Source: Escherichia coli (GTDB lineage Bacteria > Pseudomonadota > Gammaproteobacteria > Enterobacterales > Enterobacteriaceae). From it: DNA of 64,000 nt. Where the stretch lies: the NCBI RefSeq assembly GCF_024700885.2, contig NZ_CP117016.1; one strand, 5' to 3'. Position numbers and translations under genes: made by a program. Under the pieces are notes generated by a model. The model had not been told where the DNA came from. It worked only from the letters and a program-made list of their open reading frames with translations, and did no database searches. This document shows, in pieces, positions 3,413 through 10,943 of the stretch; position 1 is the first letter of the stretch; every line of letters starts with the position of its first letter.

Positions 3413-3613
3413 CTAGTCCGGATGAAAAATCCCGATCACTTGCTCATCTTTGCGAACGTGATCGCGGGCTTCTTTGTCCGCTTCTCGCATCTGATGTCCG
3501 CACTTAACACATTCAACAATATCAATATTATTTTCGCGCCACATCGCCATTGAATCCTGCGCCTGACAGGCCGGGCATTTTGCCCCCGCAATAAAACGTT
3601 TTCGGATTGCCAT
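3413..3613 (-). CDS. yheV: YheV, small zinc-ribbon-like protein, 66 aa
   Basis: Translation contains two CxxC pairs (CPAC ... CVKC); sits immediately downstream of kefB on the same strand. Confidence 0.8.
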   Translation of the reverse strand: MAIRKRFIAGAKCPACQAQDSMAMWRENNIDIVECVKCGHQMREADKEARDHVRKDEQVIGIFHPD

Positions 3614-3622
3614 CTTTACCCT

Positions 3623-5428
3623 CTACTCAAATTCATCCCAGCCGTCCAGCTGGCGTCGTTCTTGTTGCATTTCACGCTGGAAAATCTCTTCCAGTTCGCG
3701 TCGGGCTTCCCTGGCGCGAGAAATTTGTACGGTGTCGGCATGCATTGGGATGAGCTCCCGCAACATCCGCATATCCAGGCGGCGAAAATGCAGTTGCGCC
3801 CGCTGCGCCTGATGTGGATGCATGCCTAGCGTGACCAGCGTCTTGCGCCCCAGCTCTAACGCACTGGAGAATGTCTCACGAGAAAACTGCGTCACCCCTG
3901 CCTGTAATAACTCATGCGCCTCCACACGTCCGCGCGCTCGCGCAAGAATATGTAAATGCGGAAAGTGCTGCTGGCATATTTCCACCAGTTTCATGGTGTC
4001 TTCCGGCTCATTACAGGTAATGACGATAGACTCAGCGGCCTCTGCACCCGCAGAACGTAAAAGATCTACCTGCGTGGCGTCGCCGTAATAAACTTTGTAG
4101 CCATATTTGCGCATCAGGTTAACGGCACTGATATCCCGCTCCAGCACAGTAATGCGCATTTTATTTGCCATCAGCAAACGACCAATCACCTGACCAAAAC
4201 GTCCAAAGCCCACGACAATGACCTGCGGTTTATCATCGTTGACCCACGGTTTTTCATCCTCTTCTTCCGGTCCGTTAAACTGGCGGGATAGCCATTTATC
4301 TACCAGCTTCATCAGCAGCGGCGTGGTCATCATGGAAAGCGTCACCGTCACCAGCAACAGCGCCATCTGGTCACCCTGGAATAAGCGTTGTGAAGAAGCG
4401 GTAGAAAAGAGCACAAAGGCAAACTCACCGCCCTGACTCAACACGCCAGCAAACTGCATCCGCTCTGAGCTACGCACGCCATACAGTCGCGCCAGCAGAT
4501 ACAGCACGAGAATTTTCACCGCCACCAGCACAACCACAGCTATCACTACCCACAACAGATGGGTATAAAGCACCCCGAGGTTGAGCGACATGCCGACAGA
4601 GATAAAGAACAAACCGAGCAGCAACCCCTTAAACGGATCGATAGCCGTTTCCAGTTCATGGCGATATTCACTTTCCGCCAGCAGCACGCCTGCAATAAAC
4701 GTACCGAGCGCCATCGACAGCCCCAGCGCATCCATAAACAATGCGGAACCCAACACCAGCAGCAACGTCGCGGCGGTGAACACTTCCCGCACGCCAGAAG
4801 CTGCAATAAAGCGGAATACCGGACGCAGTAAATAGCGCCCGCCAATCAGCATGCCGACAAACGCCAGCACCTTCATGCCGATCTTCATCCAGTCGAAATG
4901 TTCGTCTGCCGAACCCGCCAACAACGGCACTAACGCCAGTGCCGGGATCACTGCCAGATCCTGAAACAGCAGAACCGAAAACCCGAGCTGCCCGGATTCG
5001 CTGCGATTCATCCCTTTATCACGCATCAGTTGCAACGCCATTGCGGTTGAGGACATCGCAAGGCCAATACCACCGACCACCGCCGCCTGCCAGGCGAAAT
5101 CCGTCAGCATCAATAATCCCGCCAGCAACGCCGCGCTTAACAGCACCTGTGCCGCACCTACGCCAAAAATCGAACGCCGCAATTGCCAAAGCTTGGAGGG
5201 ATTCAACTCCAGGCCGATGATAAACATCAGGAACACCACGCCGAGTTCCGAAAAGTGGAGGATCTCATCGACGTCGCTAATAAAACCCAGCCCCCACGGG
5301 CCAATTGCAATCCCTGCCAGCAAATATCCCAACACAGCGCCAATACCCAGCCGCGATGCCAGCGGCACCGCAGCCACCGCCGCGAAGAGAAACAACACTC
5401 CTGCGAGTAAAAAATCGGAACCTTCCAT
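3623..5428 (-). CDS. kefB: Glutathione-regulated K+/H+ efflux antiporter KefB, 601 aa
   Basis: Multi-TM N-terminal domain plus C-terminal KTN/Rossmann segment ([17 protein letters not shown]); matches remembered KefB. Confidence 0.95.
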
Positions 5429-5982
5429 CAGCGGCCTCCTGGAGACAGCGGATTTGCCAGCCAGTCACCGTAGGCTCTGGCGTGACTCGCCAGCTCCTGT
5501 GCGCTTTGCCGTCTCGCCCAGTAAATAATGATGGGACTCAACCAATGCATCCGGCACATGCCCGCCGCTAGTTCAAAGGGGCGCAGAACATCGCTCATCG
5601 GGTAGCGATTCAAGGCGTCATAACGGTAAGCACTTTCCGGCTCGCCGGTGGTAATCACGCTACGCCAGTACTTTCCCGCCAGTTGGTTTCCTCCCGGCCC
5701 GCTGGCAAAACCACGGCTTAATACCCGGTCCAGCCACTCTTTCAGTAGCGCCGGGCAGCTATAGGTATAAAGAGGATGCTGAAAGACAATCACCTCGTGC
5801 TCGCGCAGTAATGCCTGCTCACGGGGGATATCAATAAAAAAATCGGGATAGTGCGCGTAAAGGTCGTGCACGGTAACATTGCTGAGCTGCGTGGCCGGTT
5901 TAAGCAGTACCCGGTTTGCCACCGAGTCCTGAGATTCCGGATGGGCATACAGCAGCAAAACTTTCGCTGGCTGAGACATCAT
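5428..5982 (-). CDS. kefG: KefG, ancillary quinone-oxidoreductase-like subunit of the KefB system, 184 aa
   Basis: Translation [20 protein letters not shown]...; stop overlaps the kefB start by 1 nt (translational coupling). Confidence 0.92.
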
Positions 5983-6109
5983 CCCCCTCCCGGTATGGTT
6001 TTTGTGTATAGTCGCTGTTTTGGGCTACCATTGCGCCCGGTGCGGCAGCTCGCCCATACATTACATTATCATAATGATAAGTTAACATAGTCTGAACATA
6101 CGGCACCTT

Positions 6110-8023
6110 ATGATTGTTTTCTCCTCGTTACAAATTCGTCGCGGCGTGCGCGTCCTGCTGGATAATGCCACCGCCACCATCAACCCCGGGCAGAAAGTCG
6201 GCCTGGTGGGTAAAAACGGCTGTGGTAAATCTACCCTGCTGGCATTGCTGAAAAATGAACTCAGCGCCGACGGCGGCAGCTACACCTTTCCGGGAAGCTG
6301 GCAACTGGCGTGGGTGAATCAGGAAACGCCGGCGTTACCGCAAGCAGCGCTGGAATATGTCATTGACGGCGACCGTGAATATCGCCAACTGGAAGCGCAG
6401 CTACGCGACGCCAACGAACGTAACGACGGGCACGCCATTGCGACCATTCATGGCAAGCTGGATGCTATTGACGCATGGAGTATTCGCTCCCGCGCCGCAA
6501 GTCTGTTGCACGGCCTCGGTTTCAGCAATGAACAACTCGAGCGTCCGGTAAGTGATTTCTCCGGTGGCTGGCGTATGCGTCTTAACCTTGCCCAGGCGCT
6601 GATTTGCCGTTCAGACTTGCTGCTGCTCGACGAACCGACTAACCACCTCGATCTCGATGCCGTTATCTGGCTGGAAAAATGGCTGAAGAGCTATCAGGGC
6701 ACGCTGATCCTGATCTCTCACGACCGCGATTTCCTCGATCCGATCGTCGATAAAATTATTCATATCGAACAACAAAGCATGTTCGAGTACACCGGCAACT
6801 ACAGTTCGTTTGAAGTACAGCGCGCCACCCGTCTGGCGCAGCAACAAGCGATGTACGAAAGCCAGCAGGAACGCGTGGCGCATCTGCAAAGTTATATCGA
6901 CCGTTTCCGTGCCAAAGCCACCAAAGCGAAGCAGGCCCAGAGCCGTATTAAGATGCTGGAGCGTATGGAGCTGATTGCCCCCGCGCACGTCGACAACCCG
7001 TTTCGTTTTAGCTTCCGCGCGCCGGAAAGCCTGCCTAATCCGTTATTAAAGATGGAAAAAGTCAGCGCAGGCTATGGTGATCGCATTATTCTCGACTCGA
7101 TTAAACTGAATCTGGTGCCCGGCTCGCGCATTGGTCTGTTAGGCCGCAACGGCGCGGGTAAATCGACATTAATCAAACTGTTAGCTGGCGAACTTGCGCC
7201 AGTCAGCGGTGAAATTGGTCTGGCGAAAGGGATCAAGCTCGGCTACTTCGCCCAGCATCAACTGGAATACCTGCGCGCCGACGAATCGCCTATTCAACAT
7301 CTGGCACGTTTAGCGCCGCAGGAACTGGAACAAAAACTGCGTGACTACCTCGGCGGCTTTGGTTTCCAGGGCGATAAAGTGACGGAAGAAACGCGCCGCT
7401 TTTCCGGTGGGGAAAAAGCCCGCCTGGTGCTGGCATTAATCGTCTGGCAGCGTCCGAATCTGCTGCTGCTCGACGAACCGACCAACCACCTTGACCTCGA
7501 CATGCGTCAGGCACTCACCGAAGCATTAATCGAGTTCGAAGGCGCGCTGGTTGTCGTCTCGCACGACCGTCATTTGCTGCGTTCCACCACTGACGATCTC
7601 TACCTGGTTCACGATCGTAAAGTCGAACCGTTCGACGGCGATCTGGAAGATTATCAACAGTGGTTGAGCGACGTACAAAAGCAGGAAAACCAGACCGACG
7701 AAGCGCCAAAAGAGAACGCAAACAGCGCCCAGGCACGTAAAGATCAGAAGCGTCGGGAAGCGGAGCTGCGTGCGCAAACCCAACCGCTGCGTAAAGAGAT
7801 CGCCCGTCTGGAAAAAGAGATGGAAAAGCTGAACGCACAGCTGGCGCAGGCGGAAGAGAAACTCGGCGACAGCGAACTGTACGATCAAAGCCGTAAAGCA
7901 GAACTGACCGCCTGCCTGCAACAGCAAGCCAGCGCCAAATCCGGCCTGGAAGAGTGCGAAATGGCGTGGCTGGAAGCCCAGGAGCAGCTTGAGCAGATGC
8001 TGCTGGAAGGCCAAAGCAACTGA
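6110..8023 (+). CDS. yheS: ABC-F family ATPase YheS (two ABC cassettes, no transmembrane domain), 637 aa
   Basis: Two Walker A motifs (GKNGCGKST, GRNGAGKST) and two signature/Walker B regions (LSGGWRMR...LLLLDEPTNHLD twice), then a charged coiled-coil C-terminal tail. Confidence 0.93.
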   Translation: MIVFSSLQIRRGVRVLLDNATATINPGQKVGLVGKNGCGKSTLLALLKNELSADGGSYTFPGSWQLAWVNQETPALPQAALEYVIDGDREYRQLEAQLRDANERNDGHAIATIHGKLDAIDAWSIRSRAASLLHGLGFSNEQLERPVSDFSGGWRMRLNLAQALICRSDLLLLDEPTNHLDLDAVIWLEKWLKSYQGTLILISHDRDFLDPIVDKIIHIEQQSMFEYTGNYSSFEVQRATRLAQQQAMYESQQERVAHLQSYIDRFRAKATKAKQAQSRIKMLERMELIAPAHVDNPFRFSFRAPESLPNPLLKMEKVSAGYGDRIILDSIKLNLVPGSRIGLLGRNGAGKSTLIKLLAGELAPVSGEIGLAKGIKLGYFAQHQLEYLRADESPIQHLARLAPQELEQKLRDYLGGFGFQGDKVTEETRRFSGGEKARLVLALIVWQRPNLLLLDEPTNHLDLDMRQALTEALIEFEGALVVVSHDRHLLRSTTDDLYLVHDRKVEPFDGDLEDYQQWLSDVQKQENQTDEAPKENANSAQARKDQKRREAELRAQTQPLRKEIARLEKEMEKLNAQLAQAEEKLGDSELYDQSRKAELTACLQQQASAKSGLEECEMAWLEAQEQLEQMLLEGQSN

Positions 8024-9045
8024 TGGCGCAGATAACGACGACCGATGCCAATGAATTCAGCAGCAGTGCTGAATTCACCCCTATGCGCGGCTTTAGCAAT
8101 TGTCATCTACAAACCATGCTGCCGCGTCTGTTTCGTCGCAAGGTGAAATTCACCCCGCACTGGCAGCGACTGGAGTTGCCCGACGGCGATTTTGTCGATC
8201 TCGCGTGGAGTGAAGATCCTGCACAGGCGCGGCATAAACCGCGTTTAGTCGTGTTTCACGGGCTCGAAGGCAGTCTCAATAGCCCTTACGCCCACGGTCT
8301 GGTTGAGGCGGCGCAAAAGCGTGGCTGGCTGGGCGTGGTGATGCATTTTCGCGGATGCAGCGGTGAACCAAACCGTATGCACCGCATTTACCATTCGGGC
8401 GAAACCGAAGACGCCAGTTGGTTTTTACGCTGGCTGCAACGCGAATTTGGTCATGCGCCAACGGCTGCCGTCGGCTATTCGCTCGGCGGAAATATGCTGG
8501 CCTGTTTGCTGGCAAAAGAAGGTAATAACCTCCCGATTGATGCAGCGGTAATTGTCTCCGCGCCATTTATGCTGGAGGCCTGTAGTTACCATATGGAAAA
8601 GGGCTTTTCCCGCGTTTATCAGCGTTACTTGCTGAACCTGTTAAAAGCCAATGCCGCGCGCAAGCTGGCAGCCTACCCCGGAACGCTGCCGATTAATCTC
8701 GCGCAGTTAAAATCGGTACGTCGCATCCGTGAATTTGACGATCTCATCACCGCCAGAATTCACGGCTACGCTGACGCTATCGACTATTATCGTCAGTGTA
8801 GCGCCATGCCGATGCTCAATCGGATAGCCAAACCGACGCTGATTATTCACGCCAAAGACGATCCGTTTATGGATCATCAGGTGATCCCGAAACCGGAAAG
8901 TCTCCCCCCGCAGGTGGAGTATCAGCTGACTGAACATGGCGGTCATGTTGGCTTTATTGGCGGTACATTACTTCATCCACAAATGTGGCTGGAGTCACGC
9001 ATTCCTGACTGGTTAACAACGTATCTGGAGGCGAAATCATGTTGA
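8023..9045 (+). CDS. yheT: Alpha/beta-fold hydrolase YheT, 340 aa
   Basis: GYSLGG nucleophile-elbow motif in the translation; start overlaps the yheS stop by 1 nt. Confidence 0.9.
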
Positions 9046-9257
9046 TTCCGTGGCAAGACCTCTCCCCCGAAACGCTGGAAAATTTAATTGAAAGCTTTGT
9101 GTTACGTGAAGGCACCGATTATGGTGAACATGAGCGTACACTTGAACAGAAAGTCGCCGACGTCAAACGCCAGCTACAGTGCGGAGAAGCGGTGCTGGTA
9201 TGGTCGGAGCTGCACGAAACGGTCAATATCATGCCGCGCAGTCAGTTTCGCGAATAA
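9039..9257 (+). CDS. yheU: YheU, small protein of unknown function, 72 aa
   Basis: ORF overlaps the yheT 3' end by 7 nt; translation [20 protein letters not shown]... matches remembered YheU. Confidence 0.85.
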
Positions 9258-9310
9258 CCTGCAACCGTCGGCGGACGAGATAATAATGATAGCTAAGTCA
9301 TGGAGTTACT

Positions 9311-10180
9311 ATGTCTGCCAAACATCCGGTCATTGCGGTAACAGGATCTAGCGGCGCGGGGACCACCACCACCAGCCTCGCGTTTCGTAAAATATTCGCG
9401 CAGTTAAATCTGCATGCAGCCGAGGTGGAAGGCGACAGTTTTCACCGTTACACCCGCCCGGAAATGGACATGGCGATCCGCAAAGCGCGCGACGCCGGGC
9501 GGCATATCAGCTACTTCGGCCCCGAAGCGAACGACTTTGGCCTGCTGGAACAAACCTTCATTGAATATGGTCAGAGCGGCAAAGGGAAATCTCGCAAATA
9601 TCTGCATACCTACGATGAAGCCGTACCGTGGAATCAGGTACCGGGGACATTCACCCCCTGGCAACCTTTACCGGAACCCACTGATGTACTGTTTTATGAA
9701 GGTTTACACGGCGGCGTAGTCACGCCACAGCATAACGTTGCGCAGCATGTGGACTTACTGGTCGGCGTGGTGCCTATCGTTAACCTTGAGTGGATTCAAA
9801 AACTGATCCGCGACACCAGCGAGCGCGGGCACTCACGAGAAGCAGTGATGGACTCGGTAGTGCGCTCAATGGAAGACTATATCAACTACATCACACCGCA
9901 GTTTTCCCGCACCCATCTTAACTTCCAGCGCGTTCCCACCGTCGACACTTCAAACCCGTTCGCGGCAAAAGCTATCCCGTCGCTGGATGAAAGCTTTGTG
10001 GTGATCCATTTTCGTAATCTGGAAGGGATCGATTTCCCCTGGCTGCTGGCGATGTTGCAAGGCTCATTCATTTCCCACATCAATACGTTAGTGGTACCGG
10101 GCGGCAAAATGGGTCTGGCAATGGAATTAATTATGCTGCCGCTGGTGCAACGATTGATGGAAGGAAAGAAAATCGAGTAA
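9311..10180 (+). CDS. prkB: Phosphoribulokinase-homologous P-loop kinase PrkB, 289 aa
   Basis: N-terminal P-loop (VTGSSGAGTTT); translation matches remembered PrkB. Confidence 0.9.
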   Translation: MSAKHPVIAVTGSSGAGTTTTSLAFRKIFAQLNLHAAEVEGDSFHRYTRPEMDMAIRKARDAGRHISYFGPEANDFGLLEQTFIEYGQSGKGKSRKYLHTYDEAVPWNQVPGTFTPWQPLPEPTDVLFYEGLHGGVVTPQHNVAQHVDLLVGVVPIVNLEWIQKLIRDTSERGHSREAVMDSVVRSMEDYINYITPQFSRTHLNFQRVPTVDTSNPFAAKAIPSLDESFVVIHFRNLEGIDFPWLLAMLQGSFISHINTLVVPGGKMGLAMELIMLPLVQRLMEGKKIE

Positions 10181-10234
10181 CTTTGCTATTACGCCGGATA
10201 AAATACTATCCGGCTTCACAATGGGATAGTTAAA

Positions 10235-10639
10235 TCACGCGGCAACCACTTCATACGAGTGAGTAATATTCACCGCTTTTTCCAGCATCAACGCCACTGA
10301 ACAATATTTCTCGGCAGAGAGATCTACCGCACGCGCAACCGCTGCGTCTTTCAGGTCGCGACCGGTGACGATAAAATGCAGATTAATGTGCGTAAACAGG
10401 CGTGGTGCCTCTTCGCGGCGTTCAGAGGTCAATTTTACTTCACAATCGACCACATCCTGACGCCCTTTTTGCAGAATAGAAACCACATCGATGGCACTGC
10501 AACCACCCGCCGCCATCAACACCATTTCCATCGGACTTGGTGCTTTATCACCAGAGTTACCGTCCATTAAAATCTGGTGACCAGAGGCGGATTCGCCCAG
10601 AAAAGTTAACCCTTCGACCCACTTCACTCGCGCTTGCAT
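10235..10639 (-). CDS. yhfA: OsmC/Ohr-family protein YhfA, 134 aa
   Basis: ORF track 10235..10648; I chose the internal ATG (MQARVKWVEG...) from the remembered 134-aa length. The start codon is uncertain by 3 codons. Confidence 0.82.
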   Translation of the reverse strand: MQARVKWVEGLTFLGESASGHQILMDGNSGDKAPSPMEMVLMAAGGCSAIDVVSILQKGRQDVVDCEVKLTSERREEAPRLFTHINLHFIVTGRDLKDAAVARAVDLSAEKYCSVALMLEKAVNITHSYEVVAA

Positions 10640-10649
10640 TTTTGCCACT

Positions 10650-10943
10650 CCACTGCATCAAATTTATTCACAGCGTACGCGTACTGAGCAAATCGCGCAA
10701 CAGAAGGCGACCTGAGTCAAGCTGAAGCGAGACACCAGGAGACACACGGCGAAAGCTATGCTAAAACAGTCAAGATGCTACAGTAATACATTGATGTACT
10801 GCATGTGTGTAACGGACTTCACATAACAGATGCAGTACGTATTTGACAGCCTCTTCCCAGATAGCGGGAAGCACATTTCGGCAATCCAGAGACAGCGGCG
10901 TTTTCTGGCTCTGGAGAAAGCTTATAACAGAGGATAACCGCGC
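10650..10943. promoter_or_regulatory. crp / yhfA divergent promoter region, including a CRP-like autoregulatory site near 10805-10826
   Basis: 294-bp intergenic region. tgtaacggacttcaca approximates TGTGA-N6-TCACA, about 120-140 bp upstream of the crp ATG, consistent with the known downstream autoregulatory CRP site. Exact promoter hexamers not resolved. Confidence 0.5.

Follow-up and report, generated by a model that had tools for sequence, protein, structure and literature searches.

Translational coupling of the ABC-F gene yheS to yheT looks like a recent, deletion-made fusion in Escherichia

Why should the gene of a ribosome-acting ABC-F ATPase be joined, stop codon to start codon, to the gene of an alpha/beta hydrolase? 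The question is raised by a 64,000-nucleotide stretch of Escherichia coli DNA from contig NZ_CP117016.1 (the window), in which yheS and yheT share one nucleotide, the A at 8023 in ...AAC TGA TGG..., and yheT in turn overlaps yheU by seven (Table 1). A preliminary description of the locus had seen here a three-gene yheSTU operon and a pairing without obvious mechanistic rationale. Both overlaps can be read directly from the sequence, and RefSeq gives the same three CDS boundaries; for annotated genes of a model organism, chance can be set aside. The DNA of the locus is 100% identical to E. coli chromosomes; positions 6110-8023 are the already well-studied E. coli yheS, and the locus is the chromosomal cluster yheS-yheT-yheU. 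The C-terminal extension (CTE) of YheS, its coiled-coil prediction, the need of the CTE for activity and the operon have been published before; an evolutionary account of the yheS-yheT pairing is what we add. We consider it very probable that YheS is an ABC-F factor with a hairpin CTE, that its coupling to yheT in Escherichia derives from a deletion and that the conserved module of the locus is yheT-yheU(-prkB).

Table 1. Features of the yheS locus, with positions in the window.
Feature	Position	Strand	Remarks
kefG-yheS divergent intergenic region	5983..6109		predicted promoters and yheS 5' UTR
yheS CDS	6110..8023	+	637 aa plus stop (ORF list of the window); ABC-F ATPase of the ribosomal E site
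YheS NBD1, residues 1-216, Arm included	6110..6757	+	motifs, Pfam ABC_tran, domain limits of PMC13249984
YheS interdomain linker (PtIM), residues ~217-312	6758..7045	+	Pfam ABC_tran_Xtn
YheS NBD2, residues 313-526	7046..7687	+	motifs, Pfam
YheS CTE, residues 527-637	7688..8020	+	composition, ABC_tran_CTD, AlphaFold2, orthologue conservation
TGATG, yheS stop/yheT start overlap	8021..8025	+	seen only in Escherichia among the loci compared
yheT CDS	8023..9045	+	340 aa, putative alpha/beta-fold serine hydrolase
yheU CDS	9039..9257	+	72 aa, acidic, UPF0270 family
ATGTTGA, yheU start/yheT stop overlap	9039..9045	+	7 nt; GGAGG Shine-Dalgarno 7 nt upstream
prkB, phosphoribulokinase homologue	9311..10180	+	53 nt after yheU

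Four ABC-F translation factors of E. coli have been characterised, and YheS is one of them. The protein encoded in the window carries each ATPase motif twice: Walker A at residues 34 and 345, the signature FSGG at 150 and 431, Walker B (LLLLDEP) at 170 and 451 and the H-switch at 202 and 483. The Pfam family ABC_tran likewise matched twice (E 1.7e-50), as is characteristic of the two-cassette ABC-F ATPases, and ABC_tran_Xtn (PF12848) identified the PtIM at residues 217-299 (E 1.7e-29, 102 bits against a cutoff of 25.9). The cryo-EM study of YheS places the PtIM at 230-312 and the Arm at 90-121 (PMC13249984). Membership of the YheS subfamily follows from the NCBIfam equivalog PRK10636 (1405.4 bits, cutoff 917, residues 1-636), and YheS, YheT and YheU alike passed their NCBIfam equivalog models. 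Moreover, YheS is near-identical (E = 0) to the ribosome-bound PDB chains 9vvi_W and 9nlh_H. These represent the E. coli K-12 protein (UniProt P63389), which is the same protein over 636 residues with the same order NBD1(Arm)-PtIM-NBD2-CTE and a gene that also lies between kefG and yheT; the differences are strain-level substitutions, e.g. one R/H change in the Arm region. Two complete cassettes, the lack of a membrane domain and an ABC-F factor acting on the ribosome, all proposed in the preliminary description, were thus borne out.

RefSeq names the product 'ABC transporter ATP-binding protein', which would suggest a transporter subunit, and an antibiotic-resistance (ARE) ABC-F protein might be suspected because a generic model of NCBIfam, 'ribosomal protection-like ABC-F family protein', is passed (432 bits, cutoff 380) and because an overexpression screen reported that YheS raised the streptomycin MIC 3-fold (PMC12924614). 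We regard this pair of readings as extremely unlikely. [quoted passage not shown] Scores for the specific ARE models fell far short of the cutoffs (Msr 263/680, Vga 260/725, Lsa 220/750, OptrA 310/1450, Sal 322/725). An Rfam search over positions 5300-10900 gave no RNA family match and thus no known leader or riboswitch such as those by which ARE ABC-F genes are regulated.

Comparison with its paralogues sets YheS apart. YbiT, the closest ABC-F paralogue in E. coli, shares with YheS the ABC-F core and the binding to the E site and can be aligned over residues 1-516. It lacks a C-terminal extension, the criterion that separates it from YheS (PMC11162784), and 111 residues follow residue 526 in the protein studied here. 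In agreement with this distinction, YheS failed the YbiT-type NCBIfam model PRK15064 (365 bits, cutoff 762). It also failed the whole-protein model of Uup (359 bits, cutoff 900), and the two factors have different clients, polyproline for Uup and SecM for YheS (PMC11162784).

What YheS does on the ribosome is known from published work. Cryo-EM revealed it in the E site of the SecM-arrested ribosome with its PtIM pushing aside the P-tRNA's CCA end (PMC13249984; PDB 9vvi, 9nlh). In the PURE system, purified YheS by itself frees SecM arrest without YheT or YheU, and release is abolished by deletion of the CTE, by deletion of the linker helix or by E456Q. In vivo, SecM arrest was unaffected by endogenous YheS under the conditions tried, and expression of the factor is described as generally repressed (PMC11162784). 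According to the published mechanism, YheS in its ATP form enters the vacant E site as a soluble ABC-F translation factor, held by the Arm (at the L1 stalk) and both NBDs. It then loosens the contacts of the nascent chain in the tunnel and allows certain arrested ribosomes (SecM in vitro) to resume, an action for which ATP hydrolysis is required.

The tail had been described beforehand as helical and rich in K, E, Q and R, and this view was substantiated. K, R, E, D and Q make up 49% of residues 527-637 as compared with 31% of residues 1-526, and the CTE has a net charge of -7. It is made up of an acidic/polar linker, a basic motif that is invariant (NSAQARKDQKRREAELR.QTQPLRK) and a predicted antiparallel helical hairpin of approx. 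50 residues with the turn GDSELYD. AlphaFold2 predicts the helices at 535-585 and 593-636 with pLDDT values of 95-98, and the predicted two-helix hairpin is that of the family ABC_tran_CTD (PF16326). The Pfam score for this family is borderline but consistent with membership: the CTE by itself reaches 35.5 bits, over the gathering score of 32, whereas a scan of the full-length protein gives 30.0, just under it. With a mean identity of 72%, the CTE is the least conserved region of YheS (88-90% in the other domains), and within it the basic motif (RKDQKRR..R..QP.RK) is invariant across 19 orthologues.

Several known extensions can be placed beside it. Uup, too, ends in a helical hairpin assigned to ABC_tran_CTD. 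The CTD of Uup is a coiled coil for which DNA binding has been reported, and the CTE of YheS resembles it in family and predicted fold. The C-terminal domains of both factors, about 100 residues each, are invisible on the ribosome (bioRxiv 2023.06.15.543498), as residues 527-637 are in the cryo-EM structure of YheS (PMC13249984), which would be explained by flexibility. In VmlR, an ARE ABC-F protein from B. subtilis, a helical hairpin follows ABC2, is needed for function and lies on the 30S subunit, its turn being located where the mRNA exit channel opens (bioRxiv 2023.06.15.543498). We take it as a working model, although the VmlR extension is shorter (64 residues as opposed to 111) and VmlR protects against antibiotics. 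By analogy, we infer that, close to the mRNA exit channel, the CTE of YheS may reach either the 30S subunit or the mRNA. The tRNA-binding arm of ValRS (PF10458) is an antiparallel coiled coil as well. A weak similarity of YheS to this arm was reported earlier by Murina et al. 2019 (E 3.6e-3) and was recovered weakly here, but it is a resemblance and not membership, as the match to Val_tRNA-synt_C covered 26 residues and scored 15.5 bits (cutoff 25.9, E 0.021). A fold search of the CTE against the PDB returned nothing at E ≤0.001. Its matches were antiparallel coiled coils of a generic kind (Smc arms, STAT, the SerRS arm, the Rad50 hook), from which no specific function of the CTE can be deduced.

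Upstream of yheS, the last ~45 nt before the start codon (ATAATGAyAAkTTAACATAsTCTGAACATACGGCrCyTT) are conserved across Enterobacterales in a cross-species comparison, and the Shine-Dalgarno sequence is weak. The spacer towards kefG contains a promoter-like site on the minus strand (TTCAGA-17-TATGAT at 6096-6068) and an inverted repeat (6061-6072/6074-6085). A Fur box in this spacer was considered and rejected; the 19-mer consensus was unmatched within 3 mismatches.

How old is the coupling between yheS and yheT? We surveyed gene order with YheU as anchor in the 80 best matches listed, all of them Enterobacterales species, of which 78 loci were usable. Among these, yheS and yheT are coupled in two, E. 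coli and E. albertii, and the same arrangement was found in one assembly labelled E. fergusonii. Elsewhere among the matches listed, 91 bp to more than 6 kb separate the two genes. These spacers contain terminator-like hairpins, a conserved promoter-like element of yheT (GGTATAGT), opposite-strand genes (LysE-family, ydhR-like) and variable gene islands. A divergently oriented LysE-family gene lies directly upstream of yheT in 46 of the 78 usable loci listed, and 29 of the other 30 have, 30-60 nt ahead of the ATG of yheT, a predicted -10 element resembling TATAGT. In Salmonella enterica, yheS and yheT are separated by a ydhR-like gene on the minus strand, and most other families likewise have an opposite-strand gene at this place. 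In three of four close relatives, a terminator-like hairpin (predicted, -13.7, -12.6 and -22.7 kcal/mol) directly follows the yheS stop codon. Nevertheless, yheS is found upstream of yheT on the same strand, ~0.1-7 kb away, in 47 of the 80 species among the matches listed.

When the junctions are aligned, the entire spacer is missing in Escherichia. Judged from these sequences, the coupling looks like a recent, derived fusion made by deletion and seen only in Escherichia: a deletion of ~95 bp would have taken out a spacer that, in sister genera, bears the predicted yheS terminator and the predicted yheT promoter, leaving TGATG behind. In E. coli the new arrangement is fixed, with the 81-nt junction sequence present in 5425 of 5426 complete genomes. 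As the coupling was seen only in Escherichia and looks deletion-made, it would not reflect an old functional partnership, and no mechanistic rationale is needed for it. Of the puzzle posed by the preliminary description, the coupling itself is therefore real in E. coli, whereas a general pairing of an ABC-F factor with a hydrolase is not supported in view of 2 out of 78 listed loci. The three-gene operon stands for E. coli, where we see the physical coupling and the literature provides the co-transcription. Independent transcription, named in the preliminary description as counter-evidence, is nearly what the relatives of E. coli display with their predicted hairpins, promoter-like elements and opposite-strand genes.

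The partners downstream behave differently. Pfam and NCBIfam assign YheT to the alpha/beta hydrolases (Abhydrolase_1, E 3e-41; PRK10985, 648 bits, cutoff 267), and the nucleophile elbow, acid and histidine of a serine hydrolase can be discerned in a candidate triad of S153 (GYSLGG), D279/D280 (AKDDPF) and H308 (GGHVGF), motifs that are kept in a 40%-identical homologue. A sequence search found no solved relative of YheT. YheU belongs to UPF0270 by Pfam and NCBIfam score and by the fold of its relative PA3463 (PDB 1y0n), an orphan fold. Its ATG at 9039 precedes the TGA of yheT at 9043-9045 within ...TCA TGT TGA TTC.... Such tight spacing, with an estimated gap of -7 to -1 nt, recurs in ~72 of 79 loci among the matches listed, and prkB follows yheU in 76 of the 80 species loci listed. 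A scan for predicted sites in the yheU-prkB interval gave no terminator-like site. A profile search built from distant members of the YheU family returned mostly enterics again; the wider sampling drew on eight distant representatives, mostly on short metagenomic contigs. Two such non-enteric contigs (54% YheU identity) have yheT and yheU overlapping by 4 nt without an ABC-F neighbour, and more distant yheU homologues have unrelated neighbours. In one contig (L087), the C-terminus of the gene upstream of yheT was inspected as a possible YheS tail and is not one. A giant protein with nine 'YheU' stretches (P0196) turned out to be a eukaryotic mucin with VWD/C8/TIL domains, a compositional match. 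By gene order, the conserved unit is yheT-yheU(-prkB).

Could the three proteins still form a functional module, in which YheT as an esterase and YheU act with YheS on the ribosome or its products? YheT might, for example, hydrolyse an ester such as dropped-off peptidyl-tRNA or aminoacyl-tRNA, with YheU as an adaptor for the YheS tail. [quoted passage not shown] The stop/start overlaps provide tight coupling at a junction fixed in E. coli, and the frequent location of yheS a few kb upstream of yheT, together with a preprint according to which the three genes are often adjacent in other organisms, would leave room for a weak functional link. However, direct adjacency is as rare as stated above, opposite-strand genes, hairpins and a promoter-like element intervene elsewhere, and yheT-yheU pairs occur without an ABC-F gene outside Enterobacterales. 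Furthermore, YheS requires neither partner in the PURE system, and the literature that we searched contains no paper tying YheS, YheT and YheU together functionally. We consider a functional module very unlikely. As the junction is fixed in E. coli, the co-expressed proteins could have gained a function there. The fusion would then be non-neutral: with yheT-yheU under the yheS promoter and translation coupled, a new functional link would have arisen, YheT acting on an ester from the P-tRNA dislodged by YheS and the acidic YheU docking on the basic motif of the tail. The support for such a link is co-expression, and we think it highly improbable.

An internal promoter in the 3' part of yheS might instead drive yheT-yheU(-prkB) independently in E. 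coli and reduce the overlap to a feature of packing. In support of this, genomic SELEX with the RpoD holoenzyme listed an 'Internal Promoter' of yheST for a binding site that lies between the two genes (PMC3946193). Moreover, YheS is generally repressed (PMC11162784), while yheT-yheU-prkB has a promoter-like element of its own in relatives. On the other hand, our sequence scan of the last ~400 nt of yheS found no convincing sigma-70 -35/-10 pair; the best score there, 4.7 (~99.9th percentile of the gene background), belongs to a site inside yheT. The ancestral promoter-like element of yheT is deleted in E. coli, and yheSTU has been described as a co-transcribed operon, as which it is also treated by the databases that a preprint cites. 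We regard the internal promoter as possible but doubtful. It is compatible with a deletion-derived fusion and does not exclude it.

In summary, the comparison of 80 species indicates that a tight translational link between genes of one genome is no evidence of a functional partnership. The yheSTU cluster looks like a young operon that arose from the deletion of a spacer with predicted terminator and promoter. The basic motif ahead of the hairpin is the most conserved part of the essential YheS tail and offers a concrete target for mutagenesis and cross-linking.

Both overlaps claimed for the yheSTU genes in the preliminary description were read directly in the sequence, one nucleotide at yheS/yheT and seven at yheT/yheU. 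The window is E. coli chromosomal DNA: several complete E. coli genomes match its bases 5400-9400 at 100% identity, and 5425 of 5426 complete E. coli genomes carry the segment, counted by its 81-nt yheS-yheT junction. A Shine-Dalgarno (SD) sequence, GGAGG, lies 7 nt 5′ of the yheU start; the sole SD candidate of yheT is a distant GGAAGG, 12 nt upstream. The minus-strand pair kefB/kefG, whose products RefSeq names a potassium-efflux protein with its ancillary protein, shares a stop/start overlap of the same kind as yheS/yheT and provides a useful contrast to it.

Features of the yheS-yheT-yheU region, in order along the window
Feature	Position	Strand	Remarks
slyD, yheV		minus	upstream side of yheS
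kefB	3623-5428	minus	upstream side of yheS
kefB/kefG overlap	5428	minus	1 nt
kefG	5428-5982	minus	upstream side of yheS
kefG-yheS intergenic element	6061-6109		inverted repeat and conserved sequence up to the yheS ATG
yheS	6110-8023	plus	637 aa; boundaries identical in RefSeq
yheS/yheT overlap	8023	plus	AAC-TGA-TGG
yheT	8023-9045	plus	340 aa; boundaries identical in RefSeq
yheT/yheU overlap	9039-9045	plus	TCA-TGT-TGA
yheU	9039-9257	plus	72 aa; boundaries identical in RefSeq
yheU-prkB spacer	9258-9310
promoter-like site	9259-9287		CTGCAA-17-AATAAT
prkB		plus	follows yheU
yhfA		minus	follows prkB
crp			follows yhfA

With YheU as anchor, the best 80 species-representative loci were taken, all from one order, Enterobacterales, and YheS, YheT, YheU, PrkB and flanking genes were placed in them by tblastn, whose alignment ends define the gap sizes. 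Among these 80, yheS abuts yheT in only two loci, those of E. coli and E. albertii. The gap measures 91-193 bp in four loci, 300-1000 bp in 19 and more than 1 kb in 22; in 32, yheS is absent from the upstream sequence examined (up to about 7 kb, shorter in some), and one locus, from Acerihabitans, lacks yheT. Overlap or abutment of yheT and yheU was found in about 72 of 79 loci, and prkB follows yheU in 76 of 80. The yheT-yheU overlap is kept even in two contigs from outside Enterobacterales with a 54% identical YheU, where no ABC-F gene was found upstream of the pair; yheU genes more distant than these have unrelated neighbours. In Acerihabitans arboris (L070, 5343-8210), yheS, a LysE-family gene and yheU occur with no yheT detected, so that the otherwise near-universal yheT-yheU pair is disrupted.

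An opposite-strand gene for a LysE/RhtB-family membrane protein lies immediately 5′ of yheT in 46 loci, including all sampled Yersiniaceae, Erwiniaceae, Pectobacteriaceae, Morganellaceae, Hafniaceae and Budviciaceae. A ydhR-like gene separates yheS from yheT in Salmonella enterica (minus strand) and Trabulsiella. As judged by eye from ORF translations, the Citrobacter interval holds a 3.4-kb island with NAMPT-like, PRPP-synthetase-like and Nudix/NrtR-like products, and that of S. enterica subsp. diarizonae and one Enterobacter a malonate-decarboxylase-like cluster. Across Enterobacterales, the interval stands out as a hotspot where gene content varies (comparison loci L004, L007, L011, L013, L046, L092 and others; locus positions about 3500-7000).

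A predicted TATAGT-like −10 element (typically GGTATAGT), often preceded by TTTTCATAAACA, lies 30-60 nt before the yheT ATG in 29 of the 30 uncoupled, LysE-free loci. In three of the four closest relatives tested, the spacer opens with a predicted terminator-like hairpin and U-run directly 3′ of the yheS stop (−13.7, −12.6 and −22.7 kcal/mol). In the junction alignment, the whole spacer of about 95 bp is missing, with TGATG in its place, from E. coli and E. albertii and also from an assembly with a YheU labelled E. fergusonii. A deletion that took out the terminator of yheS together with the promoter of yheT would have joined the two genes in Escherichia. Judged from these sequence comparisons, the coupling appears to be derived, a trait of Escherichia alone among the sampled loci, and the ancestral unit looks like yheT-yheU(-prkB). 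If so, the pairing of YheS with a hydrolase, which the preliminary description found puzzling, needs no mechanistic rationale. The ABC-F assignment and the overlaps of that description stand, and its interpretation is supported in part. Independent transcription of the genes, which would speak against the operon it describes, is nearly what the predicted terminators and promoters indicate in the relatives, though not in E. coli. Databases assert co-transcription of yheSTU in E. coli, and an internal site for RpoD, between yheS and yheT, is listed in a SELEX study (PMC3946193); we found no convincing sigma-70 motif between the two genes in the window.

Further regulatory sequence flanks the genes. 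The kefG-yheS element includes an inverted repeat, TTACATTATCAT-A-ATGATAAGTTAA, with 12-nt arms overlapping predicted divergent promoters. Striking conservation, reaching from Escherichia to Dickeya and Serratia, marks the next 45 nt or so, which run up to the yheS ATG (ATAATGAyAAkTTAACATAsTCTGAACATACGGCGCyTT); an SD sequence for yheS is nearly absent. The element, which has no match in Rfam, could be an operator or a 5′-UTR element controlling the poorly expressed yheS; a Fur box was not matched in this region within three mismatches. The yheU-prkB spacer contains no terminator-like site 3′ of yheU and carries a promoter-like site (score 6.7, above the 99.9th percentile of local background). 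Thus, prkB may be transcribed by read-through from yheU as well as from a promoter of its own.

YheS has two full ABC cassettes and no membrane domain, as claimed: Walker A (residues 34 and 345), the signature FSGG (150 and 431), Walker B (170 and 451) and the H-switch (202 and 483) each occur twice, and no hydrophobic segment was found (top 19-residue hydropathy 1.22). The ABC-F linker domain ABC_tran_Xtn spans residues 217-299. YheS scores 1405 bits with the NCBIfam equivalog PRK10636 (cutoff 917), falls short of the models for EttA, Uup and YbiT and of every specific model of antibiotic-resistance ABC-F proteins, and is near-identical to ribosome-bound YheS in PDB chains 9vvi_W and 9nlh_H. 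The YheS subfamily was defined by Murina et al. 2019, who predicted that Arm, linker and CTD form coiled coils and saw in the CTD a weak resemblance to the tRNA-binding arm of ValRS. In the PURE system, purified YheS sets SecM-arrested ribosomes free, an activity lost upon deletion of the linker helix or the C-terminal extension or by E456Q, and endogenous YheS is poorly expressed with little effect in vivo (Chadani et al. 2024, PMC11162784). In the structure of YheS-EQ2 on the SecM-arrested ribosome, the protein occupies the E-site, its Arm contacts the L1 stalk, its PtIM (230-312) displaces the P-tRNA CCA end, and the extension 527-637 is invisible (Iso et al. 2026, PMC13249984). The C-terminal domains of YheS and Uup, about 100 residues, were also unseen in the Hunt/Frank preprint (bioRxiv 2023.06.15.543498), which describes the VmlR extension as a helical hairpin located where the mRNA exit channel opens.

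The charged helical tail described for YheS was recovered: K/R/E/D/Q make up 49% of residues 527-637 versus 31% elsewhere (net charge of the tail −7), and an AlphaFold2 prediction built with 19 orthologues gives, after 16 disordered residues, a hairpin at high confidence (pLDDT 95-98), with helices at 535-585 and 593-636 and the turn GDSELYD. In a scan of the tail by itself, Pfam ABC_tran_CTD, the Uup-type CTD, reached 35.5 bits and so exceeded its cutoff of 32; the ValRS arm scored 15.5 bits, far below its threshold of 25.9, and a fold search brought up nothing more specific than generic antiparallel coiled coils. Within YheS, conservation is lowest in the tail (mean identity 72% versus 88-90% for the NBDs and PtIM in 37 full-length enterobacterial orthologues), yet helix 1 starts with a basic motif that is invariant, R-K-x-Q-K-R-R-x-A-x-x-R...Q-P-x-R-K. 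From the hairpin model, this motif and the 30S-side VmlR extension as working analogy, we infer a flexible arm that may touch 30S-side rRNA or mRNA with its basic base, its tip or both.

YheT belongs to the alpha/beta hydrolases (Abhydrolase_1, E 3e-41; PRK10985) and has a candidate triad S153, D279/D280 and H308, kept in a homologue of 40% identity; sequence search detected no structurally solved relative. YheU is a member of UPF0270, a domain that a metagenomic protein of 271 aa (P0212) combines in one chain with a YpsA/SLOG domain in circularly permuted form. On a soil metagenome contig (L095; 2807-4072, 932-1672), UPF0270 and a histidine-kinase-type HATPase_c share one 421-aa protein, and a second UPF0270 protein lies beside another HATPase_c gene. 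These fusions and neighbours hint at a signalling or nucleotide-sensing role of the UPF0270 domain in distant lineages. The library protein P0196 (4021 aa; E 1.9e-12 to YheU, nine matched stretches) is a eukaryotic mucin with VWD, C8, TIL and Mucin2_WxxW domains and thus a compositional false positive, of a type that matters when UPF0270 members are counted.

Given the published work on YheS, every element of the finding first described at this locus is already in the literature, and the yheSTU feature is known. Only the cross-species comparison adds something new: in the Enterobacterales sample, the yheS-yheT join looks recent and is seen in Escherichia alone.
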